Virus record (IMG/VR): IMGVR_UViG_3300027653_000015
Location: 1 to 50,583 of that record
Source of the DNA: a virus
Lineage: Duplodnaviria > Caudoviricetes
Length of the DNA stretch: 50,583 nucleotides
Strand: one strand, 5' to 3'
The notes below the pieces were generated by a model that saw only the letters and a list, made by a program, of their open reading frames with translations, was not told the origin of the DNA and made no database searches. The translations under genes were made by a program, and so were the position numbers. The stretch's first letter is position 1; each line of letters opens with the position of its first letter. Shown piece after piece: positions 18,984 through 40,748 of this stretch.

Positions 18984-19012
18984 TGTGATACAATTAGGTA
19001 GCAAAACCTCTC

Positions 19013-19100
19013 ATTAATTATTTATTTTATTTATTCCCCCTTAATCCCCCTTTAGGGGGATATTAAGGGGGTGGGTAGTAGTAGAAAAATTAAAAATAAA
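19013..19100. repeat. second AT-rich palindrome with CCCCCTTTAGGGGG core
   Basis: CCCCCTTAAT (19036-45) pairs with ATTAAGGGGG (19062-71) around the same core; T-rich left flank and A-rich right flank. Confidence 0.8.
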
Positions 19101-21223: not shown

Positions 21224-21841
21224 ATGGCTAATCAGACCGAGTTCGTGGCAGACCTCACCAACTACAAAGACCGCGTGGGCGCTCGGATTCCTGAGGGTGA
21301 GTACACCTTCCGCGTGGACGATGCCGAACTTACCAAAGCCCGGTCGGGTAACCAGATGATCGTGTTGTCGTTGGAGGTCTTAAACGGACCGGAAGCAGGG
21401 GAGACGGTTATCGATCGGTTGACACTTTCCCCCGCAGCGATGTTCCGGGTAGTGAACTTCTTGAAGGCGCTGGGGATTCCTACGCCGAAGAAGCGCTTGA
21501 AACTAGATACAAAGCGGTTCATTAACCGCCGCATCAAGGCCGAAGTAGCGGACGGCGAACCGTACCGCAACACGGTCAAGTCGGAGGTAGTTTCCTACTC
21601 CCGCGCAGAGTCGGCTAAAGACGATGGAGCGGACGAATTGGAGGACCTGGAGGATCTGACGGACGACACCATCGAGGACCTGGAGGACGTCGAGGACGCT
21701 GAAGAAGTAGAAGAGGCCCCGAAGGCGAAGAAAAAGTCCAAGAAAAAGTCGGCACCGGAACCTGTAGAGGACGACGAGGACGACGACCTCGAAGATGACG
21801 ATGACGACGACGAGATTGATCTGGACGACCTGACCGTCTAA
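21224..21841 (+). CDS. DUF669-like single-stranded DNA-binding protein
   Basis: IPEGEY...SGNQMI motif and a very acidic C-terminal tail. Confidence 0.75.
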   Translation: MANQTEFVADLTNYKDRVGARIPEGEYTFRVDDAELTKARSGNQMIVLSLEVLNGPEAGETVIDRLTLSPAAMFRVVNFLKALGIPTPKKRLKLDTKRFINRRIKAEVADGEPYRNTVKSEVVSYSRAESAKDDGADELEDLEDLTDDTIEDLEDVEDAEEVEEAPKAKKKSKKKSAPEPVEDDEDDDLEDDDDDDEIDLDDLTV

Positions 21842-21843
21842 GA

Positions 21844-21913
21844 TCAGTAGTGCGTGTTTCTCCATGAGCGGACGAGACAACCAGCACCGCTAACGGCTGG
21901 CCGCACTACATGA
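21844..21913 (+). ncRNA. candidate structured RNA (three-way junction)
   Basis: GTAGTGCG (21847-54) pairs with CGCACTAC (21902-09), enclosing two hairpins. Folded by eye only. Confidence 0.35.
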
Positions 21914-21955
21914 CCCCGGGGAGTTTCCGGTTCCTTCCGACTCCCCGGGGTTTCT
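21913..21955 (+). terminator. terminator hairpin with anti-RBS loop
   Basis: 12-bp perfect stem ACCCCGGGGAGT/ACTCCCCGGGGT, loop TTCCGGTTCCTTCCG, followed by TTCT. Confidence 0.7.
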
Positions 21956-21979
21956 CCATGTCTGGGATACACTCCCCGC

Positions 21980-27912: not shown

Positions 27913-28200
27913 GTGTCAGATATGGTTCTCAAAGTCGAAAAATTGCCTGCGCTGCCTTGCCCGGAATGCCGGGGAAGAGGCGCGGGAGGAGGTGCTCGGA
28001 TAGGGAACAGTAGGAGCACTTGCACGACCTGCAACAACTTCGCGCAGAACGTTTTACGTCTCACTAGAAAACGTCTGATGGAACGGTTCCCGGAGGAGTA
28101 TCAGGAGTTACGACTAAGGACCGAATTGGATCTCTACCCGCAAGTCATTGAAGATTGGGCGGCTCGGAAATACTGGAACGAGGACAACGATGCAGAATAA
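27913..28200 (+). CDS. hypothetical zinc-binding protein
   Basis: CPEC...CTTC; overlaps the first glycosyltransferase. Confidence 0.6.
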   Translation: MSDMVLKVEKLPALPCPECRGRGAGGGARIGNSRSTCTTCNNFAQNVLRLTRKRLMERFPEEYQELRLRTELDLYPQVIEDWAARKYWNEDNDAE

Positions 28201-28924
28201 ATCGGCGGAACTTCCGACGCTGCATTTGATGTGGCTTCCGGGACACAATTATTTTCGAGACCGGAACGCAGCGAAGTGGATTACCGGAAAATATTTTTCA
28301 GGAAAAGTTTGCGTCCATGCGGATCGGGAACGAAAAGGCAATGGCTGGAACCATCGGCAGATAGTTCAGTGTGCTTTGCAAGACGGGAAAGCCTGGAGTT
28401 TAGTGATTCAGGACGACGCGATACCTTGCGCAGGGTGGGAAGATCATCTGAAACGAGTTCAGGAAACCGCAGTGCAGCCCTTCGTTAGATTATATTTTCC
28501 GGGCAACTACGGGAAAGCCCTAGCAGATAAAGGCGTTCCGTATGGCTACAGCAAAGAATCCACGGCAGCGGTAGCGGCGCTATTCGAGCGCGAGAATTTG
28601 AAAAACTACGCTCGGTTTACGGTAGAAGTGGAGCGCGAGTTCCCGGGGTTTTTCTATAAATGGGATGACATTCTTATAGAGATATACAACATGGTGGCGG
28701 GAACCTATTCGGCGATTACGGCAAGAAACTTGGTGCGCTTATTGGACGTACCTTCGACGCTAGGAAATCCGCCAGCACGCGATCCCGACTTCACGATAGA
28801 GGACCCGGGACCCGAATGGGAAGCAGAACCTCGGGAAAGATCGGCAGGACTGTATCCCGGGGACCGGACCAGATTCCAGCCGATACTGGAACGAATGCGG
28901 GAGATCTGGAGCGGGAAACAGTGA
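28190..28924 (+). CDS. putative glycosyltransferase (GT-A-like), paralog 1
   Basis: HADRE..G.WNH, LVIQDDA, WDD and PSTLG motifs. Confidence 0.6.
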   Translation: MQNKSAELPTLHLMWLPGHNYFRDRNAAKWITGKYFSGKVCVHADRERKGNGWNHRQIVQCALQDGKAWSLVIQDDAIPCAGWEDHLKRVQETAVQPFVRLYFPGNYGKALADKGVPYGYSKESTAAVAALFERENLKNYARFTVEVEREFPGFFYKWDDILIEIYNMVAGTYSAITARNLVRLLDVPSTLGNPPARDPDFTIEDPGPEWEAEPRERSAGLYPGDRTRFQPILERMREIWSGKQ

Positions 28925-29703
28925 GCGACTTCAAGTGGCCGACGATGCACATAATGACCGTTCCGGGGAGCGACTCGCGGCGGGATGCGCTAGTGCAGTG
29001 GTGGCAAAAGTCTGGGGAGTATCCGGGGCGAGTATGCCTCCATGCGGATCCGGAACGGCGGGGAGTGCTTTGGAACCATGTCGGGATCCTAGAATGCGCT
29101 CTGCGCGGCGATCAGGGGGCAGGCTGGGCAATGACTATGCAGGACGATGTAAAGCCGCTTACGGGCTGGCTGGAGGCCTTAAAGCAGGTAATGCAGCACG
29201 CACCGGCGCCGTTCGTGAGTCTGGGTCACCTGGCGAAATACGGCAAGAGGCTAGTGGGGCGCGGGATCCCGTTCGGGGTCGGGGTAAACGCGATGTGGGG
29301 ACAGGCGATGCTGATCCACTTCGATGTTCTGGAGCCCTACCTGGATTTGGCGAAAACGATGCAGCACATAAATCCGAAAAAATATCGCAACTGGGACGAC
29401 TACTTGCCGACGATTTTCAATTTAATTTACGGGACCGAAGCGGCATTCACCAGCAGGGCTCTGGTGGAGCATCAGGACTGGGAATCCACGCTAGGACACG
29501 TTCCGGGACTGTGGAGACGGGCAGCCGCGACCATACGGCACGCCGGACCTCCTTGGGATGCGGTTCCACGAAGCGGGAGAGGCGCGCCGGGAGTGGAGCG
29601 GAAACACCGGGACGCGGCATCGATGGTTCAAGGGTATTGGGAACAAGAGTTAGGCATTAACGATCCGGCTGTCGGAGAAAAGGTAAAGAAGTGGATATCG
29701 TGA
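28921..29703 (+). CDS. putative glycosyltransferase (GT-A-like), paralog 2
   Basis: HADPE..GVLWNH, MTMQDDV, WDD and LVEH...STLGH motifs; GTGA overlap. Confidence 0.65.
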   Translation: MSDFKWPTMHIMTVPGSDSRRDALVQWWQKSGEYPGRVCLHADPERRGVLWNHVGILECALRGDQGAGWAMTMQDDVKPLTGWLEALKQVMQHAPAPFVSLGHLAKYGKRLVGRGIPFGVGVNAMWGQAMLIHFDVLEPYLDLAKTMQHINPKKYRNWDDYLPTIFNLIYGTEAAFTSRALVEHQDWESTLGHVPGLWRRAAATIRHAGPPWDAVPRSGRGAPGVERKHRDAASMVQGYWEQELGINDPAVGEKVKKWIS

Positions 29704-30305
29704 ACAAAGTTCGGGCAACGTCCCTGATGTATGACCTGCTCGCAAAAGATTACGACGGGCGGTACCTGGGTGAAAAGTTTCAGGCAGAAAACCGTCAAGT
29801 GTTTGAGTGGATCCGAGAAGGTCGCGGCGGAAAAATAGGCGCGCCTCGTGTGTTGGATCTGGGAGCCGGGACCGGACTAACCCTCGACATCGGAGTACTG
29901 GACGACGGAGACTTTCAGGACTACGTCGCGGTGGACCCTTCAGCGGGAATGTTGGAGCAGTTGCGCATGAAATATCCGGAAGTATCGAGGGTGTTTCCGC
30001 GAACGGCAGAAGATTTTCTGGAACAGAATCCGAACGAGATTGCGGAAATAGTGGTGAGCCTATTCGGATCTCCCTCACACATGCTGCCGGAAACAATTAC
30101 GGCTCTGCCGGGGCGGTGCATCGAGGCACTTGTACTAATGCACTACGCGGAAGGGTATTTTCCATACTTCTATGACGAAACAGTTATCCCGAACTGGTCG
30201 GAGAAAAGCCGGGAAGCAGCGCTAGCGCTATTGGAAAAATATCCAGGGAGAGTGGAGCATCTGGGAACGTTTCAGGTAGTGCTGATTGGAGAAAATTATG
30301 TCTAG
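29691..30305 (+). CDS. class I SAM-dependent methyltransferase
   Basis: VLDLGAGTG, VAVDPSAGML and SLFGS motifs. Confidence 0.88.
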   Translation: MDIVNKVRATSLMYDLLAKDYDGRYLGEKFQAENRQVFEWIREGRGGKIGAPRVLDLGAGTGLTLDIGVLDDGDFQDYVAVDPSAGMLEQLRMKYPEVSRVFPRTAEDFLEQNPNEIAEIVVSLFGSPSHMLPETITALPGRCIEALVLMHYAEGYFPYFYDETVIPNWSEKSREAALALLEKYPGRVEHLGTFQVVLIGENYV

Positions 30306-31482
30306 CACGCCGAAGCGCAGACCGATCCGGTACCGGCCTCGGTACAGCACTGGGTTAAACGTGTTTGACGCCGCGAAAGAACGGATCAAGTGGCTGTTCG
30401 ACGAGTTTGACGGGAACGTGGGAGTGTCCAATTCTGGGGGCAAGGACAGCACGGTGGTCCTGGAGTTGACGGTGCAGGTGGCGAAAGAACTTGGGGCAGG
30501 TCCGGTGCGGGCAGTGTTCCTCGATCAGGAATGTGAGTACGAATCCACTGTCAATTACCAGCGCTACATAATGAGTCGCAAGGATGAAATTAAGTTCGAC
30601 TGGTACCAGATCCCTTTCCGGATGTATAACGCTGGAAACTACGACAACCCGTGGCTCAGGGCGTGGGATCCGGACGAAGAATGGGTGCGGGATAAGGAGC
30701 CGGACAGCATTCACGAGAGCCCGTTCAAGACAGACCGTTTCTACACCCTGCTACGAGAGATAGGCAACGCCCACGAGGGGCAGGCACTATTGACCGGTAT
30801 CCGGATCGAGGAAAGCCCGAACCGTCGACTATCGAATGTGATCCGCCCGCAATATAAATGGGCAACATGGGCGTCGAGCGGGTACTCGCCGAAGCAGGGG
30901 CGGCTCCACTATAAGTTCAACCCGATTTACGACTGGACTTATAACGATGTCTGGAAGGCGATACACGACAACAACTGGGTCTATAACGAGCACTATGACC
31001 GCATGTATCACCGAGGTGTTCCGAAACGGAATATGCGGGTGAGCAACTACCATCACGAAACGGCCATGGCTTCCTTGATGGTGCTCCAGGAAACGGAGCC
31101 GGAGACATGGGAGCGGGCGACTCGGAGGCTGGAAGGCCTGAACGCGGTAACGCATATCGGGTTGAAGGCCATGCCGCGCACGCTCCCCTACATGTTCACC
31201 TCGTGGACCGAGTACATGGAGCACGTGCGGGACAACCTGATCCCGGAAGCGGATCGGGCGACCTACACCGGCTACTTCAATGAACTGGTGCGGACCTTGC
31301 CAGAACTACCGGAGAGCGAGATCGCGAGGCAGGTGGCGCGCGCCATAGTGATTAACGATCTTTATGGAACGACGTTGGATAACTGGAAAAGCGTGATCGT
31401 TCATCCCGACTCGCTGAAACGCTGGCAAGAACGAAAAGAACAAGAAGATCGCTGGAAACAACTACGGGAGCGCGCATCATGA
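30298..31482 (+). CDS. IbrA-like PAPS reductase / PP-loop family protein
   Basis: SGGKDS PP-loop, FLDQE, GIRIEES..R, PIYDW...DVW and MRVS motifs. Confidence 0.85.
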   Translation: MSSTPKRRPIRYRPRYSTGLNVFDAAKERIKWLFDEFDGNVGVSNSGGKDSTVVLELTVQVAKELGAGPVRAVFLDQECEYESTVNYQRYIMSRKDEIKFDWYQIPFRMYNAGNYDNPWLRAWDPDEEWVRDKEPDSIHESPFKTDRFYTLLREIGNAHEGQALLTGIRIEESPNRRLSNVIRPQYKWATWASSGYSPKQGRLHYKFNPIYDWTYNDVWKAIHDNNWVYNEHYDRMYHRGVPKRNMRVSNYHHETAMASLMVLQETEPETWERATRRLEGLNAVTHIGLKAMPRTLPYMFTSWTEYMEHVRDNLIPEADRATYTGYFNELVRTLPELPESEIARQVARAIVINDLYGTTLDNWKSVIVHPDSLKRWQERKEQEDRWKQLRERAS

Positions 31483-32168
31483 AACGGACGCAGGACAGCC
31501 TAGAAAAGTCGGGGGCAGACAAGGACACGCGGGAGACCTACGAGCGCGTTAACGCTCTAATTGCCGAGGCCTACGACCTATTGCAGGAGGTGCAGGACAG
31601 CCCGAACCCCGTGGGGCGCGTCCAATGGCTCCCCATCGAGCAAGTACAGGCGAACGATTACAACCCGAACGCGGTAGCGCGGCAAGAAATGCAGTTGCTC
31701 TATACGTCGATATCGGAGGACGGCTACACCCAACCGGTGGTGGCGATTTGGGACGAAGAAGAACAGAAAGCCATAATCGTGGACGGTTACCATCGCTACA
31801 CCACGATGCGGAGATACGCCGATATCCACGGATCTACGCAGGGATACCTCCCGGTAGTGCTGATCGATAAGCCTATTGCGGACCGTATAGCCAGCACGGT
31901 GAGGCACAACCGCGCTCGCGGAAAACACTCGGTGCAAGGCATGGGCAGCCTAGTGTTTCAGATGCTGGAAGCAGGCGAGACCGATGCCGAAATATGCAAC
32001 AAACTCGGGCTGGAGGTCCAGGAACTGGTGCGATTGAAACACATCACCGGATATTCGAAACTATTTGCGGATGTCGAGTATTCGGAGGTAACGCTGGCAG
32101 ATACCCAACTAGAAGAAAAAGCAAAATACGCTCGGGAAAACCCGGGCGAGAAGATTCCGAGGTTCTGA
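31479..32168 (+). CDS. IbrB-like ParB/Srx domain protein
   Basis: NDYNPN, DGYTQPVV, IVDGYHR and STVRHNRARGKH motifs. Confidence 0.85.
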   Translation: MKRTQDSLEKSGADKDTRETYERVNALIAEAYDLLQEVQDSPNPVGRVQWLPIEQVQANDYNPNAVARQEMQLLYTSISEDGYTQPVVAIWDEEEQKAIIVDGYHRYTTMRRYADIHGSTQGYLPVVLIDKPIADRIASTVRHNRARGKHSVQGMGSLVFQMLEAGETDAEICNKLGLEVQELVRLKHITGYSKLFADVEYSEVTLADTQLEEKAKYARENPGEKIPRF

Positions 32169-32755
32169 TGAAAAAAGCAACACTGGGCCGAACCGAGATG
32201 ACCCCCATCGATTCGATTAAACCGTACTGGCGCAACCCACGCCGGATCTCGGATGAAGCGATAGAGCAACTGGCCCACTCGATTCAAGAGTACGGCTACC
32301 AGCAACCACTCGTGGTGGACGAAAAAAATGTGCTGATAGTGGGTCACACGCGGTACGCCGCGATGCGGCGCCTAGGCGTGGAAACCGTGCAGGTAATGAT
32401 TGCCGACCACTTGACGCCGAAGCAGGTAAAACAGTTCCGGCTGATCGATAACCGCGCAGCGGAATACACCACGTGGGATCCGGAAGTTCTGGCGGAGCAA
32501 CTGGCGGCACTGGAAGATCCGGAACGGATCGGGGAGTTTTTCCCGGAAGCACTGGCGCAGGATGTGTTGGACGCGGAAGAAAATCTGGAGATAGATCTGG
32601 AAACTTTCGGGGAGGACGATGCGCAAGTGCTGGAGTTTATCTGCCCCTCGTGCTACTTCACTTGGGATGCGCGGGTGACCGGCATGGCGATGATGGCTGG
32701 ATTCATATCGAAGAATGACGCCGTAGAAGCGTCGGAAAGGGGCGAGGGTGCATAA
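32168..32755 (+). CDS. ParB N-terminal domain protein
   Basis: PYWRNPR, GYQQPLVVD, VGHTR, LIDNR; C-terminal CPSC. Confidence 0.8.
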   Translation: MKKATLGRTEMTPIDSIKPYWRNPRRISDEAIEQLAHSIQEYGYQQPLVVDEKNVLIVGHTRYAAMRRLGVETVQVMIADHLTPKQVKQFRLIDNRAAEYTTWDPEVLAEQLAALEDPERIGEFFPEALAQDVLDAEENLEIDLETFGEDDAQVLEFICPSCYFTWDARVTGMAMMAGFISKNDAVEASERGEGA

Positions 32756-33326
32756 GGACCGGGAGACGGCTCTAAGGCCGTCAGAAACGATTGTGGCGCG
32801 GCTGGAGGACCTATCTGCCTACGAGGGCAACCCGCGAGTGATCAGTGAGGAAGCGGTGGCGAAAGTCCGGAAGAGCATCGAGATGTACGGATACAACCAG
32901 CCCATCGTGGTGGATCCGCAGGGCGTGGTGGTGGTAGGTCACACGCGGCTTCGGGCACTGCAAGAAATGGGCGTGGAAGAAGTTGAGGTCTACGTGTCGC
33001 CGCTATCGGATGAAAAGAACAACGAATACCGGCTAGTCGATAACCGGACGGGCGAAACCAGCCGCTGGGACCATGAAACTCTGGTGATGGAACTACGAGA
33101 ACTGGACGACGAATTACGGGACGAATATTTTCCGAATATTGATCTGGAGGTGAGCGCCCTTGGGGCAGTTGAGGTCACCGATGCGGACGTCGAACGGGTG
33201 GCTAAGGAGATGGCGAAAATGCCTGACGCGCCCTACGTTCCGATGACGCAGATCGAGTGCCCTCAGTGTGACGAAGTTTTTGAGGTGGAATCGTCTAGCC
33301 TTCCTAGTTTCGGAGAGGCTGGCTAA
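32748..33326 (+). CDS. ParB N-terminal domain protein (paralog)
   Basis: YEGNPR, GYNQPIVVD, VGHTR, LVDNR; C-terminal CPQC. Confidence 0.8.
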   Translation: MHKDRETALRPSETIVARLEDLSAYEGNPRVISEEAVAKVRKSIEMYGYNQPIVVDPQGVVVVGHTRLRALQEMGVEEVEVYVSPLSDEKNNEYRLVDNRTGETSRWDHETLVMELRELDDELRDEYFPNIDLEVSALGAVEVTDADVERVAKEMAKMPDAPYVPMTQIECPQCDEVFEVESSSLPSFGEAG

Positions 33327-33337
33327 AGGAGTAACAG

Positions 33338-33880
33338 ATGGCTCGGCCCACTAATCAGGCGGAAGATGTGATTGCAGCGTTAGAAGAGGTTCCGGTGAGC
33401 CCTCGAAACAACCGGGTGGAGGTGACTAAGGCGCGGCGCGTGAAAGCAATATCGCTGGCCTTAGCGGGACTGAGTTATGCCCAAATAGGGGAACAACTGG
33501 AGATCTCGGAGACCGGCGCTCGGAACCTAGTGATGCGCACCCTTACGCAGGCCGAAAATCAGGCGGTGGACGAAAGGCGGGCGGTAGAGAATACGCGGCT
33601 GGACAGGGCGCAGGCAGCGATCTGGAGCCAGGTTCTGGAAGGCGACCATAAAGCCATATCGTCTTTCTTGCGGATAAGCGACCAGCGGGCGAAGATCAAC
33701 GGACTTTACGCACCGACAAACGTTAACCTCAATGTGTCGGTGAAGAACGAGATGGAAACAGCACTAGAAGAACTCGAAGCGCTAGTGCTGGACAACTTCC
33801 CTGAGATCGAGGGTACGGAAGATGCCGAAATAGTGAGGGACGACGATCCGGAGGGGGACAGCGATGCAGATGCTGAGTAG
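33338..33880 (+). CDS. HTH protein, probable terminase small subunit
   Basis: GLSYAQIGEQLEIS HTH and R.K..GL.AP motif; overlaps TerL. Confidence 0.65.
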   Translation: MARPTNQAEDVIAALEEVPVSPRNNRVEVTKARRVKAISLALAGLSYAQIGEQLEISETGARNLVMRTLTQAENQAVDERRAVENTRLDRAQAAIWSQVLEGDHKAISSFLRISDQRAKINGLYAPTNVNLNVSVKNEMETALEELEALVLDNFPEIEGTEDAEIVRDDDPEGDSDADAE

Positions 33881-35522
33881 GGAAGAGTTCCAGCGGCAGA
33901 TCGGGGAACTAAAAAAACTCGCGGCGAGGGCGGGCGATGAAGCCGAAGTCCGGGAGGTCACGAGCAAAATTGCCAGCATTACGAGACAATTCCGAATCCA
34001 GTCGGGGATAGGCCTGCCGACTACACCGCTAGCACAGGCGCTGGAACTAAAAGCGGACTACCGGATTAGACCTCACTTGCAGTTCTTGAGCGACCGGATC
34101 TCGAACGCGGTGAGGGATGTGGAGCGGGGTCAGGATCGAATGATGATGATTTCGATGCCTCCCCGGTCTGGTAAGACGCGGCTGGTCAGCCAGTTGACTC
34201 CGTTGTGGCTCTTGCGACGTCACCCGGAATGGGAGATTGTTCTGACATCTTTCGATGGGGAACTATCGGGGGGATGGGCGCGGGACTTGCGCAGGCAGAT
34301 AGAGAGCAATCCGGGGCTCGGGGTAGCGCTGGAGCGGGACGGCGGAAAAGGGTCGAGTTGGCGGACGCTAGAAGGCGGGGGGATGTACAGTACGTCGTTA
34401 CCGGGCGGTTCTTTAATTGGACGCGGGGCGCGGGTGCTGATTATTGACGACCCGGTAAAAGACTTCGTGGACGCGCACTCTAAGAAGAATCGGGACCGCA
34501 TATGGAATTGGTGGCTGTCTACTTCCCACTCGCGGCTGGAGACCCCGTTCTTGGTGCTGGTAGTCATGACCCGCTGGCACGAAGATGATTTCGTGGGGCG
34601 TCTCTTGAGCAACGACTATCCGGGCAACCCGAAACACTGGGAGAAAATTATTCTGCCCGCTTTCGCAGGCGAGGATGATCCGATAGGAAGATCCCCGGGG
34701 GAGCCACTAATATCCCCGCTTCGGGACGAAACCAAAAACGAGGCCACGGCGCGGTGGGAAGGCATAAGTCAGTCCGTGGGGACCTACACGTTTTCTGCGA
34801 TGTATCAGCAGCGACCCGCTCCGGCGAAGGGCGCGATATTTGATAGCGGCTGGTGGAAGTTCTGGACGATTGACCCTTCCCGGGAGACCGAGGACGGGCG
34901 CACCGTTTACTTGGATCCGGGGCTACTCACTAACGGCAAGTGGATAGATTCTTGGGACTGTGCTTTCGATTCTTCTAAGGAAGGGTCCAGCGGCTGGGTA
35001 GTGGGTCAGCGCTGGGTACGGAACCAGGCGAACAGGTATCTGGTGGATCAGCGACGCGGGCGCTGGAGTTTCACGGAGACACTGGAACAGATGCGCATAT
35101 GGGCGCAGGACGACGATCCGAGACGATCCCCTTATGGCCATTTGGTTCACCGCCGTTTGATTGAGAAGAAGGCCAACGGCGCGGCAATAATCAACACGCT
35201 TCAGGAAGAAATTAGCGGCATGGTTCCGATAAACCCGACCGACTCGAAGGAAGCGCGAGCGCGAGCAATCACGCCGGAAATCGAGAGCGGAAATGTGTAC
35301 CTGCCTCATCCCGGGGATCCGGGCAACGAATGGGTGAACGACCTACTCTCGGAGTTGCGCAACTTCCCGCACGACGTGGCAGACGATCAGGTAGACACTC
35401 TGACGCAGGCGCTGGCCGACTTGCGGACATCGGGGCGGGGGCGGGTGACAGTGCCGCAAGGACTCGTCTCTCGGAACTACTCTCCTGCCGCAAAGATCTC
35501 GCAGCGACGTATAGCCAGATAG
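33864..35522 (+). CDS. terL: terminase large subunit
   Basis: MPPRSGKT, LIIDDPVK, MTRWHEDD, YQQRP, IEKKANG and DDQVD motifs. Confidence 0.93.
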   Translation: MQMLSREEFQRQIGELKKLAARAGDEAEVREVTSKIASITRQFRIQSGIGLPTTPLAQALELKADYRIRPHLQFLSDRISNAVRDVERGQDRMMMISMPPRSGKTRLVSQLTPLWLLRRHPEWEIVLTSFDGELSGGWARDLRRQIESNPGLGVALERDGGKGSSWRTLEGGGMYSTSLPGGSLIGRGARVLIIDDPVKDFVDAHSKKNRDRIWNWWLSTSHSRLETPFLVLVVMTRWHEDDFVGRLLSNDYPGNPKHWEKIILPAFAGEDDPIGRSPGEPLISPLRDETKNEATARWEGISQSVGTYTFSAMYQQRPAPAKGAIFDSGWWKFWTIDPSRETEDGRTVYLDPGLLTNGKWIDSWDCAFDSSKEGSSGWVVGQRWVRNQANRYLVDQRRGRWSFTETLEQMRIWAQDDDPRRSPYGHLVHRRLIEKKANGAAIINTLQEEISGMVPINPTDSKEARARAITPEIESGNVYLPHPGDPGNEWVNDLLSELRNFPHDVADDQVDTLTQALADLRTSGRGRVTVPQGLVSRNYSPAAKISQRRIAR

Positions 35523-35544: not shown

Positions 35545-35564
35545 TGTGCTACTATTAAGACACA
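35545..35564 (+). promoter_or_regulatory. TGTG-N12-CACA promoter/operator, copy 6
   Basis: TGTGc TACTAT taaga CACA. Confidence 0.85.
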
Positions 35565-35584
35565 ACATCAGCCAGGAGGACAAA

Positions 35585-35890
35585 ATGACTGACCAAAATA
35601 CTCCCAAGCAGATCGAACTGACCGTCGATGGTTTCCTGATGCAGGCCGAGGCCATGGGGGGACTCGCTTCCTCTGAGGAGGATCTGCGCACCGCTATCTA
35701 CGTTATCGACCTAGTCCACGATGGCCTGGATGCTTCGGAGATTCTGGACTTTTTGATTAAGCGGGAAGAAGTCTGCCGCGGATTCGGTGCCGTGGAGGAA
35801 GCCGACGCGATCCGGACACTGGTGTTCGAGGCGCTGGCAGATGGCGTGGCAGTTGACCGACGTCAAGCGGAGTTGCGCACCTCAATGTAG
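35585..35890 (+). CDS. hypothetical protein (cassette)
   Basis: Starts at GGAGGACAAAATG. Confidence 0.7.
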   Translation: MTDQNTPKQIELTVDGFLMQAEAMGGLASSEEDLRTAIYVIDLVHDGLDASEILDFLIKREEVCRGFGAVEEADAIRTLVFEALADGVAVDRRQAELRTSM

Positions 35891-35910
35891 TGTGGTATGA
35901 TTGAGACACA
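35891..35910 (+). promoter_or_regulatory. TGTG-N12-CACA promoter/operator, copy 7
   Basis: TGTGg TATGAT tgaga CACA. Confidence 0.85.
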
Positions 35911-35930
35911 TACCAACACAGGAGGACAAA

Positions 35931-36296
35931 ATGAACGAGACACTCAGCACCGAAAACCTGGAGCGCGTCTACAAGGACCTGGAACTATCGGTCCGCGTCC
36001 ACACGGCCGCGAGTGCTCTGATGCTCCGGGAGATCTCGGAACTGGCGATGCAAGGGGTCTACACTCCCGACGTGCTGGTGCGGGAGATGCAGGCGCAATC
36101 CACCCGGAATCTGCTCTGGAAGCAGGTCGGCACCCTGCTGAGGGACATGGACCTCAGCGCGCTCTGGAACGTGGCAACTCCGGTGCTGAAAACTCACCTG
36201 AACGATACGGAACATATCCTGGTCGAGGGGGTTCAGCGCAGCGTGCGGGGAACCATCAAAGCCGCTCTGGAGCGCGAATACTCCTTGGAGGGGTAA
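35931..36296 (+). CDS. hypothetical protein (cassette)
   Basis: Starts at GGAGGACAAAATG. Confidence 0.7.
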   Translation: MNETLSTENLERVYKDLELSVRVHTAASALMLREISELAMQGVYTPDVLVREMQAQSTRNLLWKQVGTLLRDMDLSALWNVATPVLKTHLNDTEHILVEGVQRSVRGTIKAALEREYSLEG

Positions 36297-36354
36297 ACGT
36301 AGGGGAGCAGCGTCCCCGGCCCTTCTAGGGCACTAGAGAGAATGAGAGGCACGC

Positions 36355-36636
36355 ATGAGTAGGAAACGAGCGACCGTCCGGAAACTGGAACTACTCAAGG
36401 AGTACGCCGCGCACGTGGGGGTCGAGGAGATCAACCCTGGCTACCCTTTTCGGGGACTTCGAGTTATGAGCGCTTCCGGAATGGTCTGGCTAGGCGGGGA
36501 GAGCAGGGACCAGCGACGGGTCACGCACTTCTACATGGCTAAAAACCATTGGGAACTTGGAGTATTTATCGACGGGATTCTGGCCGGAATGCGCGCCAAC
36601 CACCTCGATAAAGAGATCGACGGATCGGAGGGATGA
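36355..36636 (+). CDS. hypothetical protein
   Basis: 93 aa; GA-rich leader. Confidence 0.6.
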   Translation: MSRKRATVRKLELLKEYAAHVGVEEINPGYPFRGLRVMSASGMVWLGGESRDQRRVTHFYMAKNHWELGVFIDGILAGMRANHLDKEIDGSEG

Positions 36637-36959
36637 CGATGTTCGATGACGAAAAAGACGCTATAGAGTTCTTGCGGAATGTCATGCCCGATTCCCCTGG
36701 TCCGGATACCGAACTTTGCCCGGAGTTGGAAAAGTTTTTCTTAGGAATGATGGAGGCCGCCTCCGAGATTATTCACGTGAAGGTGCAGCGCGGAATTATC
36801 TCTAAGTTCCCGCATCCGGAAGCGATACTTCTAGCGGTCTACGAGTTGGCCGAGGAACTACTCCGGGAGGCCCTAGAGGATGGATCCGACGCCTTCGTTA
36901 TAGATATGCTGGCAGCATTCAGTGCGCAGCGGATCTTCGAGGAGAACGCTTCAAAGTGA
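36633..36959 (+). CDS. hypothetical acidic protein
   Basis: ATGA overlap; GGAGG RBS. Confidence 0.6.
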   Translation: MTMFDDEKDAIEFLRNVMPDSPGPDTELCPELEKFFLGMMEAASEIIHVKVQRGIISKFPHPEAILLAVYELAEELLREALEDGSDAFVIDMLAAFSAQRIFEENASK

Positions 36960-36967
36960 CCTAAAGC

Positions 36968-37051
36968 CTGGAGCCGGGTTTGTTTCTCTCAACTCTCTCC
37001 CCGGCTCCGGAACCCGCCCCTTGACTTGTCCTCCGGGGGCGGGTTTTATTT
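36968..37051 (+). terminator. tandem hairpins with pyrimidine loops; the second is a terminator
   Basis: GGAGCCGGG/CCCGGCTCC and AACCCGCCCC/GGGGCGGGTT, followed by a T-tract. Confidence 0.7.
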
Positions 37052-37061
37052 TATCCAGTTA

Positions 37062-37081
37062 TGTGGTACTATTAAGACACA
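37062..37081 (+). promoter_or_regulatory. TGTG-N12-CACA promoter/operator, copy 8
   Basis: TGTGg TACTAT taaga CACA. Confidence 0.85.
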
Positions 37082-37997: not shown

Positions 37998-38018
37998 ACA
38001 GCAACCCAGGAGGACAAA

Positions 38019-38177: not shown

Positions 38178-38213
38178 ACCGGATCGACTGAGAGAATCGA
38201 GAGAGTGAGAGAG

Positions 38214-38939
38214 ATGGCAACCATGACTACTGAACCTCAACTTCTGACCTACGAGGACCCCTTCCCTGGACGCAGCGGCGATGAACTGATCTGGGAGACC
38301 TGCGGGAGGTGCGCTGGCCAGGGTTATATCCGCGAATATTCTCACATCGACGACGGCCGCTGCTTTGAGTGCGACGGTCGCCCGCACTGGGATACTCCGG
38401 TACGGGTACTTCGCCAGCGCGAAAGCGCTCGCATCTCCCGCGCCAACGCAGAGATCCGCAAGGCGCATCGGGCGCAACTGGAAATCGAGGCCAACACCTC
38501 CAATTTTGAAGCAGCCTATCCGGAGGTCTGGCGCTGGATCGAGTTAAACCGGATTGACCCGGACAACCGCTTCGCAGCGTCGTTGCTGAAGCGCGTGGAA
38601 AGCAAAGGCGAACTCACCGAGAACCAGATCGCCGCCGTACTTCGCCAGATCGAGGAGGACGCCGCTCCTAAGCCGCTACTCCCGGAAGGCCGCCAGGAAG
38701 TGGTCGGCAAGATTATTTCGATCAAAGAGCGCGATAGTTTCTACGCCCCGAACCGCACCGAATGGAAGATGGTCGTGGAGGCTGTCGAGGGCTGGCGAGT
38801 CTGGGGCACGCGCCCCGCTGCTATCTCGGAGGCGCAGGTCGGAGACCGGGTACGGTTCACTGCCACGCTGACCCGCTCGGATGATGCTCAGGACTTCGGA
38901 TTCTTCAAGCGTCCCGCTAAGGCAGAAGTCCAAAACTAA
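38214..38939 (+). CDS. zinc finger plus OB-fold-like protein
   Basis: CGRCAGQG...CFECDG, LTENQ and GDRVRFTAT...FFKRP motifs. Confidence 0.65.
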   Translation: MATMTTEPQLLTYEDPFPGRSGDELIWETCGRCAGQGYIREYSHIDDGRCFECDGRPHWDTPVRVLRQRESARISRANAEIRKAHRAQLEIEANTSNFEAAYPEVWRWIELNRIDPDNRFAASLLKRVESKGELTENQIAAVLRQIEEDAAPKPLLPEGRQEVVGKIISIKERDSFYAPNRTEWKMVVEAVEGWRVWGTRPAAISEAQVGDRVRFTATLTRSDDAQDFGFFKRPAKAEVQN

Positions 38940-38989: not shown

Positions 38990-39017
38990 AGGAAAGAAAG
39001 AGAGAGAGAGAATCAAA

Positions 39018-39518: not shown

Positions 39519-40001
39519 ATGACTACCGCAAACATCACCATCCCGGAAACAAAACAACTCGACGAGATCGCTGAGCACCTGACCCCGATGATTCGGGAAG
39601 GCGTTTCTAGGCTGATCGAGATGGGCTTAGAGGTTTACTACCTGCCACCGCGCCGCCCGCTCCCCCAGAGCACCACGACCACCTCGTGGGTCTACTTCAC
39701 GGAGAGCCTGGAAGAGGACAAGCCGCTCGGGACGTTCGGCTATGACCTTTACGACTATGAAGGAAAAGACGGGCTCTACATTTCCTCCTCCCTGGTTCCC
39801 ACGAAACTGGACGGCTCCAGCATGGGGATAATCGGAGGCGGGGAAGGGCTGGACTTGACCTTTCAGGAAGGCGTCCAGCGCGCCCTGCTTGACCGCCCTA
39901 GTAACTCATTTCAGGGCGGGGAGGATAGCCCGCACATCCGGAACGCTGGAGCGCATAGCGCGGTGCAGAAGTTCAAAGATCTGGTGCGGATAGTTCTCTA
40001 A
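39519..40001 (+). CDS. hypothetical protein
   Basis: GGAAGGAACC RBS; 160 aa. Confidence 0.65.
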   Translation: MTTANITIPETKQLDEIAEHLTPMIREGVSRLIEMGLEVYYLPPRRPLPQSTTTTSWVYFTESLEEDKPLGTFGYDLYDYEGKDGLYISSSLVPTKLDGSSMGIIGGGEGLDLTFQEGVQRALLDRPSNSFQGGEDSPHIRNAGAHSAVQKFKDLVRIVL

Positions 40002-40005
40002 AAAC

Positions 40006-40048
40006 GTAGCCCCTCCCCGGCGGGTTCCTAGTAACGGGGAGGGGTTGC
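40006..40048 (+). terminator. long-loop hairpin / terminator
   Basis: CCCCTCCCCG/CGGGGAGGGG arms. Confidence 0.55.
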
Positions 40049-40082
40049 AATTATCTCCGTAGTGTGTTACTATTAAGACACA
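40045..40082 (+). promoter_or_regulatory. SigA-type promoter with TGTG-N12-CACA, copy 11
   Basis: TTGCAA-17 nt-TACTAT; TGTG at 40063, CACA at 40079. Confidence 0.85.
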
Positions 40083-40098
40083 AGCCAAGGAGGACAAA

Positions 40099-40326
40099 AT
40101 GACTAAGACACTTACCGCCAAGGATCAGGACGGTCAGACGATCTCCGTAGGGGATCTGGTTTACCTGGGGAACTATGGCGACGCGCAGGACCTGATCGCC
40201 ACGGTCTACAACATCAACGAGGATGGCACCCTTGATGTCGAAGGGGGCGTGATGACTGCCGATAATCAGGACGAAATCTGGCACCGCTTCGAGGGCGTGG
40301 ACGCCGATGAAGTTGGACTATTCTAG
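40099..40326 (+). CDS. small acidic hypothetical protein (cassette)
   Basis: GGAGGACAAAATG; D..G.TI.VGD.V motif. Confidence 0.7.
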   Translation: MTKTLTAKDQDGQTISVGDLVYLGNYGDAQDLIATVYNINEDGTLDVEGGVMTADNQDEIWHRFEGVDADEVGLF

Positions 40327-40331
40327 GATAG

Positions 40332-40351
40332 TGTGCTACACTTAGAACACA
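40332..40351 (+). promoter_or_regulatory. TGTG-N12-CACA promoter/operator, copy 12
   Basis: TGTGc TACACT tagaa CACA. Confidence 0.8.
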
Positions 40352-40366
40352 ACACAACGAGAGACT

Positions 40367-40390
40367 GAGAGAGAGAGAGAGAGAGAGAGA
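40367..40390 (+). repeat. (GA)12 microsatellite in a 5' leader
   Basis: Read directly; ends 10 nt before ATG 40401. Confidence 0.9.
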
Positions 40391-40400
40391 GTCGAGAAAA

Positions 40401-40640
40401 ATGGACTTCACGATAAACATCACCACCGAAAACACCGGCACCGGCGCGGGCGACGAACGACTCCGCCAGGAGATCCTGAAGCGGATCGCCGAAACTCTAG
40501 AAGCCGAATACGGTTGCGGTTGCGACTGGGTGCGGAAGCACACCAGTTTCCGCGAGGACTTTCAGGTTTCCTCGTGCGAGGTTCCTCACCGCGAGGACGA
40601 CTACGACGGGGAGCAGGTTCTGGAGGTACGCTTCGCGTAA
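40401..40640 (+). CDS. hypothetical protein (cassette)
   Basis: 79 aa between promoter copy 12 and a terminator. Confidence 0.6.
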   Translation: MDFTINITTENTGTGAGDERLRQEILKRIAETLEAEYGCGCDWVRKHTSFREDFQVSSCEVPHREDDYDGEQVLEVRFA

Positions 40641-40648
40641 ACCCCTCA

Positions 40649-40683
40649 CCCCGCATCGGAAACGGTGCGGGGATTTTTATTTT
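40649..40683 (+). terminator. intrinsic terminator ending the cassette array
   Basis: CCCCGCATCG-GAAA-CGGTGCGGGG followed by ATTTTTATTTT. Confidence 0.8.
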
Positions 40684-40748
40684 CTCGGCAATTTTAGGCA
40701 TCCTGGTACGATCAGACGGAAACCGTCTGCCACTACCGGGGAGAAACT

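Follow-up and report, generated by a model that had tools for sequence, protein, structure and literature searches.

Tandem hairpins at an operon 3′ end of a soil phage present loops complementary to leaders of predicted early genes and may form a two-headed antisense RNA

Several described RNAs meet their messages at the translation start. The chromosomal OppZ and CarZ RNAs of Vibrio cholerae are RNase E-processed operon 3′ ends that pair with start regions of their own operon, a negative feedback demonstrated by experiment with one target site (PMC7398697). In the temperate enterobacterial phages P1 and P7, C4 RNA carries segments, likely in loops, that pair near the phage's own ribosome-binding site (RBS) and act on one antirepressor operon of the immunity region (PMC12197685, PMC8198154). 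The icaR message of Staphylococcus aureus, a single gene, blocks its own initiation by an anti-Shine-Dalgarno (anti-SD) segment in its 3′-UTR (PMC3868564). Adjacent hairpins with C/U-rich loops for actual or possible pairing with G-rich leaders are described for the 6C RNA of Actinobacteria (PMC6486639) and for the cuckoo RNAs (RSs0680) of Alphaproteobacteria (PMC4615179). Further, cluster K mycobacteriophages and EF Microbacterium phages bear start-associated sequences (SAS), over-conserved RBS tags before non-structural genes that go along with a repeated promoter motif. The available text of the papers describing them (PMC3203893, PMC7302621, PMC11373665, PMC12699233) assigns them no function; the last three call their role unknown, and Pope et al. 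leave open whether the partner of the tags is RNA or protein (PMC3203893).

The locus reported here lies in a complete virus record of 50,583 bp (the window), whose recognisable genes are all on the plus strand. Soil metagenomes are the sequencing sets listed as containing this DNA; they comprise three DNA runs, one of them possibly its source, and no RNA run. The phage is akin to Microbacterium phages, which provide the closest relatives of its terminase and capsid (60% and 56%), and its host is presumably an actinobacterium. The 53 proteins scanned include tail, lysis, DNA polymerase, primase, helicase, exonuclease, Sak4, SSB, ParB-like, terminase (33864–35522), portal (40749) and capsid proteins, and neither a repressor nor an integrase. 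The gene before the terminase (33338–33880) is labelled "Rnase E" by PHROGs and gives only a weak HTH signal in Pfam; it is more likely the small terminase. The stretch 27922–33326, with glycosyltransferase-like, methyltransferase-like and PAPS-reductase genes and three ParB-like genes, resembles a DNA-modification cluster, and AT-rich near-palindromes at 650–750 and 19000–19075 have a common CCCCCTTTAGGGGG core and look origin-like; akin to them are long palindromes in phages Hendrix and G002. Terminase and portal enclose a cassette of 13 small genes, none of whose proteins (0/13) has a Pfam family above cut-off. An extended −10-type promoter motif recurs at 15 sites with a gene behind, where replication and accessory genes and no structural gene (0) are found; we take these genes to be early. 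Promoter and leader form modules that are repeated as units in the window.

Within the terminase–portal interval, among ORFans, two hairpins abut. HP1 (36968–37010, plus strand) consists of an 11-bp GC-rich stem (arms 36968–36978 and 37000–37010) and a 21-nt U/C loop (36979–36999), and has no U-tract of its own. HP2 (37009–37054, plus strand) combines a 10–12-bp stem (about 37009–37020 and 37036–37047) and a 15-nt loop (37021–37035) with a U-tract at 37044–37054, and is predicted to be an intrinsic terminator. As HP1 lacks a U-tract, termination does not account for it. Both hairpins have the coordinates and sequences given in a first-pass annotation of the window, and together they fold at −45.4 kcal/mol (z −5.3; 0/200 shuffles as good). 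When folded together with the operon end, both stems are predicted to close and the seeds to stay largely accessible (mean unpaired 0.86 and 0.80), with a predicted cost of loop opening of 0.9–2.1 kcal/mol (about 1 and 2 for the two hairpins). No Rfam match covers the element at E up to 5.

HP1–HP2 forms the 3′ end of an upstream operon (35545–36959, plus strand) with promoter motifs at 35545 and 35891 and the genes 35585, 35931, 36355 and 36633. HP1 begins 8 nt past the stop at 36959, and the gene before it has no relative apart from itself. Since motif scans find no promoter motif between 35891 and HP1, the RNA would be the 3′ end of the 35585–36959 operon and not a stand-alone gene; the next promoter motif (37062–37073, plus strand) lies 3′ of HP2 and opens the next unit. 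This layout is that of OppZ/CarZ, with an operon 3′ end that includes the common terminator, no promoter of its own (by motif scans only) and complementarity to the start regions of three of the four operon genes. Unlike OppZ/CarZ, the predicted HP1–HP2 RNA belongs to a phage, presents its seeds in loops, and has two heads and many dispersed predicted targets. The loop-borne display recalls C4 RNA, from which the element is set apart by the lack of an Rfam match and of a c4-icd-ant immunity operon around it.

Positions 37026–37034 of the HP2 loop are the exact 9-nt complement of GGAGGACAA, the RBS of four cassette genes, and the copies and positions agree with the first-pass annotation. The complement occurs once in the genome, within this loop; the four sense copies, each 1 nt before ATG, form the plus-strand leaders of genes 35585 (35575–35583, 9 bp from −10 to −2), 35931 (35921–35929), 38019 (38009–38017) and 40099 (40089–40097, identical in the relative L157). 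These four leaders are copies of one module and hence not independent. HP2 pairing covers −10 to −2 and reaches past the SD into the spacer bases ACAA, while predicted HP1 duplexes extend up to −20 to +3. The HP1 loop is complementary to GA-rich plus-strand leaders: those of genes 38214 (38188–38217, −25.3 kcal/mol), 40401 ((GA)n, 40360–40400, −21 to −23 kcal/mol) and 39018 (38999–39017, −20.4 kcal/mol) are its top three partners in a genome-wide scan, led by 38214, and that of gene 36355 (36335–36353, −18.5 kcal/mol), absent from the first-pass annotation's list of GA leaders, ranks ninth. The resemblance claimed earlier between this loop and the GA leaders is present in every quoted match. 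The accompanying view that these leaders are SD-less is probably mistaken: with an extended 16S tail, which may differ from that of the host, they reach −9.0 to −11.1 kcal/mol, like other leaders. The tail used agrees with the one mapped in Listeria and Streptococcus (PMC6288834). The (GA)n tract (40360–40397) is shorter in L157, and slippage there could adjust the affinity of the leader for the ribosome as well as for HP1. Most targets lie at most about 30 nt from the predicted 5′ end, in unstructured A/C-rich leaders.

A third class, GGAAGGAAC, has its sole complement in the loop of a sister hairpin (21912–21952, plus strand) 3′ of the SSB gene. This loop matches 10 of 69 leaders over at least 8 nt (p 0.0006), and the hairpin closes a unit whose first gene (20361) has a matched leader. 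The cassette as the predicted target set, as first proposed, stands in so far as 8/13 of its leaders are paired; the reach is wider, however, for with hairpin 21912 the set comprises 14/14 promoter-proximal genes, with those for DNA polymerase, exonuclease and Sak4 among them. Directly 5′ of the sister hairpin, 21845–21910 folds into a branched, three-way-junction-like structure (21840–21965, z −5.1; no Rfam match). SSB homologues of the window are followed by ordinary small-loop hairpins or none.

The window tags thus share with SAS that they are repeated, oriented RBS motifs conserved beyond the SD, lie before non-structural genes and have a promoter motif upstream. GGAGGACAA precedes ATG in 4/4 copies and GAAGGAACC in 5/6, and no tag stands before a late gene (0/21). 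They differ in that cluster K and EF phages use one 13-nt tag, whereas the window has three unrelated tags with no sequence likeness to either published 13-mer.

Because any U/C loop pairs with purine-rich leaders, all shuffle controls keep the loop composition. Against such controls, HP1 and HP2 together reach −16 kcal/mol or better with the 8/13 cassette leaders, which none of 400 shuffles equals, and their cassette mean is −15.9 versus −11.6 ± 1.1 in shuffles; the three loops reach −16 kcal/mol with all 14 promoter-proximal leaders, again in 0/400 shuffles. An unselected test, in which all 22 strong loops enter without any choice, gives the same picture with 300 shuffles. The 15 promoter-proximal leaders score z −5.6, the 13 cassette leaders −4.9, and a set with a single leader from each class, free of the problem of copies, −4.7 (0/300 shuffles reach the score in each case). 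The 21 late or structural leaders show no signal (z +0.5, 212/300 shuffles reach it). Each class has one best loop of the 22 by a wide gap (−16.5 vs −10.3, −16.6 vs −10.6 and −20.3 vs −11.6), which bears out the proposed assignment of three loops to three leader classes; class-level p values are 0.007, 0.026 and 0.026 (combined 0.0004). For GGAGGACAA as for GGAAGGAAC, the sole complement falls within a loop, whereas of pyrimidine-matched 9-mers 15 of 551 do so. With opening costs included, −10 is reached by 12/14 promoter-proximal, 5/55 other and 0/21 late genes.

Taken singly, the two heads differ in the tests they pass. HP2 passes exact-match counts (5/69 leaders over at least 8 nt; p 0.008 with mononucleotide and 0.032 with dinucleotide shuffles) and fails on longest match (p 0.11) and on best energy over 69 leaders (p 0.6); it has stronger non-leader partners in coding DNA, with one leader in its genome-wide top 15. 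HP1 fails exact-match tests (p 0.5–0.8), passes energy tests (p 0.010–0.013) and is borderline on the cassette (duplex, p 0.06–0.09). The 69 gene starts were curated by hand, and 4/69 are off by 1–3 nt in the exact-match tests. Likeness to leaders is confined to the loops, the flanks matching at 2–7 of 15 positions, and reversed loops give no leader signal (−13.5). A minus-strand reading, in which the loop would display the tag as a decoy, was rejected on these reversed loops and on the plus-strand orientation of all genes.

Other loops did not join the set. The first-pass annotation had listed two possible weaker members: loop 23944–58 is no better than chance (p 0.7–0.99), and loop 40020–34 is marginal, as other leaders pair best with it, only one of the three ACTAGGA complements lies in a loop, and the ACTAGGA match is lost in the 85%-identical L157. 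Loops 12575, 14956, 8352 and 23928 do not exceed shuffles, and the pairing of loop 12575 with 10976 (−21.1) has p 0.6. The segment 40006–40048 is a terminator-like hairpin without a U-tract, whose 3′ arm overlaps the TTGCAA −35-like hexamer of the next promoter and whose stem is kept in L157 through wobble-to-Watson-Crick changes.

Taking these data together, we assign a probability of roughly 60% to HP1–HP2 being a repressing anti-leader RNA that acts on several transcripts. As we picture it, a structured operon 3′ end would hold out two open loops complementary to two private leader classes. HP2 would terminate transcripts from the 35545 and 35891 promoters and perhaps also stop read-through from the packaging genes, which is possible since the stretch from 27760 to the element is free of strong terminators and shows only two weak terminator-like matches inside genes. 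The operon 3′ end may then accumulate, either on the mRNA or freed by a cut in the unpaired segment 36950–36967, and short unstructured 5′ leaders may thread into its 15–21-nt loops. A duplex over the ribosome-binding region would exclude the 30S subunit, as is established for SD-blocking sRNAs. The two-headed antisense RNA would in this way block ribosome loading on eight cassette genes, and their translation would drop while the RNA builds up, giving negative feedback on its own operon together with a common brake on other early genes for which a protein repressor would be unnecessary.

The same pairing could in principle stay within one molecule. If the terminal loops folded back onto the leaders of genes 35585, 35931 and 36355 in cis only, in the manner of icaR (PMC3868564), their matches to other genes would be a by-product of common leader modules. 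Such a fold-back would suit the matched leaders in three of four upstream operon genes and the similar build of the hairpin 21912 unit (20361). We consider it unlikely, as the best HP1 partners, 38214, 40401 and 39018, lie downstream on other transcripts and the in-operon GA leader is only ninth, and as the corresponding loop of K1 mycobacteriophages, described below, is far from most tags. Here also lies the difference from icaR, which concerns one gene, whereas most predicted partners of HP1–HP2 are on other transcripts.

Could the loops be aimed at the host instead? An anti-SD RNA of the 6C or cuckoo kind would damp host translation generally through its C/U loops, and its match to phage leaders would follow from the resemblance of both to the 16S tail. 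HP2 does contain a CCUCC core. However, a plain anti-SD tail pairs equally well with early and late leaders (−10.3 vs −10.7) and the loops discriminate sharply between them, so that the loops read beyond the SD; moreover, pairing extends into the non-SD spacer ACAA, and such an RNA would strike the phage's own leaders hardest. Loops bearing about six consecutive C define 6C RNAs, and the longest C run in the HP1 and HP2 loops is 2; this and the lack of an Rfam match place the element outside that family. Two adjacent C/U-loop stem-loops are nevertheless the architecture of both 6C and cuckoo RNAs (PMC6486639, PMC4615179), and action without a chaperone, as described for 6C, fits an actinobacterial host (PMC6486639). 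Cuckoo RNAs have 2–4 adjacent hairpins with CCUCCUCCC in each (PMC4615179); the window has two, with CCUCCUCCC in neither loop. Whereas the loops of 6C and cuckoo repeat one generic motif, those of HP1 and HP2 differ and each fits a phage-private tag. A host-directed role is therefore very unlikely in our estimate.

Among 50,697 phage records the cassette has no nucleotide relative, and in viral and metagenome contigs motif scans turned up nothing beyond chance apart from L082, which ends at 35633, and L157, which covers 39656–40694 only. L157 (85%) retains GGAGGACAA, and its shorter GA leader still pairs with HP1 (−26.5). In a relative of about 95% identity, 37019–37048 (HP2 loop and 3′ arm) is unchanged and the next 170 nt carry 8 substitutions and 2 insertions, of which three fall within or next to the U-tract; this is weak evidence as it comes from one contig at depth 2.7. 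No independent record seen contains the HP1 loop, which sequencing runs X2/X3 do not span. The searches gave no homologue of HP1 and one partial homologue of HP2; an HP2-like pattern has three viral matches, none of which combines a seed in an open loop with matching leaders. At window position 37998, X2/X3 reveal a second, higher-depth phage that shares the promoter motif and leader and little else of the cassette.

We further compared 19 related or tag-bearing phage genomes. Twelve have a repeated leader class (13 classes in total), counting G009, which falls below the leader-class cut; FuzzBuster, SM23, Dulem 38, Hendrix, G006, G008 and G010 show no clear one and were left out. A matching strong loop exists for 2/13 classes, one of them doubtful, and is missing for 11/13, including those of KaiHaiDragon, MementoMori, Megan, Kozie and MO526; the window genome ranks 1/13 in loop pairing for each of its leader classes. 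Sequence comparison makes G003 a convincing second case of an anti-tag loop: the sole strong-loop complement of its tag GAACCGGAA lies after its SSB gene (1/1000 shuffles). The position after SSB is an analogy and no synteny, as the G003 SSB belongs to a different family. G003 likewise has an extra stem-loop before its anti-leader hairpin. The G001 match is doubtful: its leader class owes part of its likeness to codon use, and the loop is also complementary to a segment 5 nt downstream, just before the next RBS, which may make it a local pseudoknot. The hairpin, a strong one after the major capsid gene (L390:10815–10866), looks pseudoknot- or switch-like, and the region also occurs in cluster EF phages. 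A reverse copy of the EF 13-mer tag, or a matching loop, is absent in G001.

K1 mycobacteriophages carry a single reverse SAS copy that is tied to no gene (Pope et al, 2011, PMC3203893). If anti-tag loops are real, this copy should form a hairpin loop, and it does so in Anaya, Adephagia and CrimD. Among the 225 loops of Anaya it ranks first (−18.1 vs −12.3). The available text of the SAS papers makes no mention of a hairpin at the reverse copy (PMC3203893, PMC7302621, PMC11373665, PMC12699233). The hairpin region matches 143 Mycobacterium phage records, and 7 of the 12 phages aligned share an identical loop though the stem changes, with double changes at 5/16 consensus pairs (9 sequences). Genes 92 and 93 flank the hairpin in Adephagia, at a site where late transcription appears to begin (PMC11373665). 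The surrounding multi-hairpin non-coding region (L451:1110–1270; Adephagia 58609–58769) is a "hypothetical gene" in some records. There is no Rfam family for the K1 hairpin, and 120-nt windows around it fold no better than shuffles. Amohnition and TClif combine an altered loop with an unchanged tag, and in SirPhilip, Hurricane, Pixie and TM4 the loop is absent and the tag unchanged; the tags therefore do not depend on the loop, and no co-change of loop and tag is seen in the cluster K phages compared.

The persistence of tags in loop-less K phages speaks for a protein partner, and so do the 13/13 cassette proteins without a Pfam family above cut-off and the opening left by Pope et al. (PMC3203893). 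Tags and loops would then be sites, as RNA or as DNA cruciforms, bound by a factor of phage or host origin, or the RNA would guide such a factor to tagged mRNAs, possibly promoting rather than blocking translation or decay. A protein site would, however, be expected in the sense of the tag and not as its complement, and the predicted duplexes cover the SD–AUG window; we hold this highly improbable.

The loops may also be neutral relics: recombination would have copied leader modules around the genome, and inverted pieces of them would have ended up as terminator loops that serve no pairing. A short loop can flip its orientation between the two arms of its stem. Such inversion, the repeated promoter–leader modules and the replacements within the cassette seen in relatives all count in favour of a relic. 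Against it, the transcribed strand carries the antisense sequence in 3/3 loops, each class has one such loop, and the likeness is restricted to the loop; reversed loops carry no signal, and the K1 loop stays invariant in 7 phages while its stem changes. A relic origin is, in our view, quite unlikely.

Searches of the open-access literature returned no description of a phage hairpin with a loop antisense to a repeated leader tag. What the window contributes is the combination of three tags with three loops, two of them in tandem, and a clean split between early and late genes. HP1–HP2 is probably functional and a variant of loop-presented antisense control. Reading the three private tags and three loops as an RNA code that shuts accessory and replication genes in separate channels and without a protein repressor goes further, and we offer it tentatively, as possible but on the doubtful side.

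How lytic actinophages turn down their early genes and what over-conserved RBS tags do have been questions since 2011, and papers of 2024–2025 still treat them as such. The window is an unusually clean case, with 14/14 promoter-proximal genes covered and 0 late genes, and the cultured counterparts Adephagia, Anaya and CrimD, which grow on M. smegmatis, make the idea testable. The RNA code, if true, would explain at least part of the K1 SAS, with an anti-tag hairpin where late transcription appears to begin. Likewise, if true, the finding would describe a compact, chaperone-free, multi-channel translational switch and supply orthogonal parts for actinobacterial gene control.
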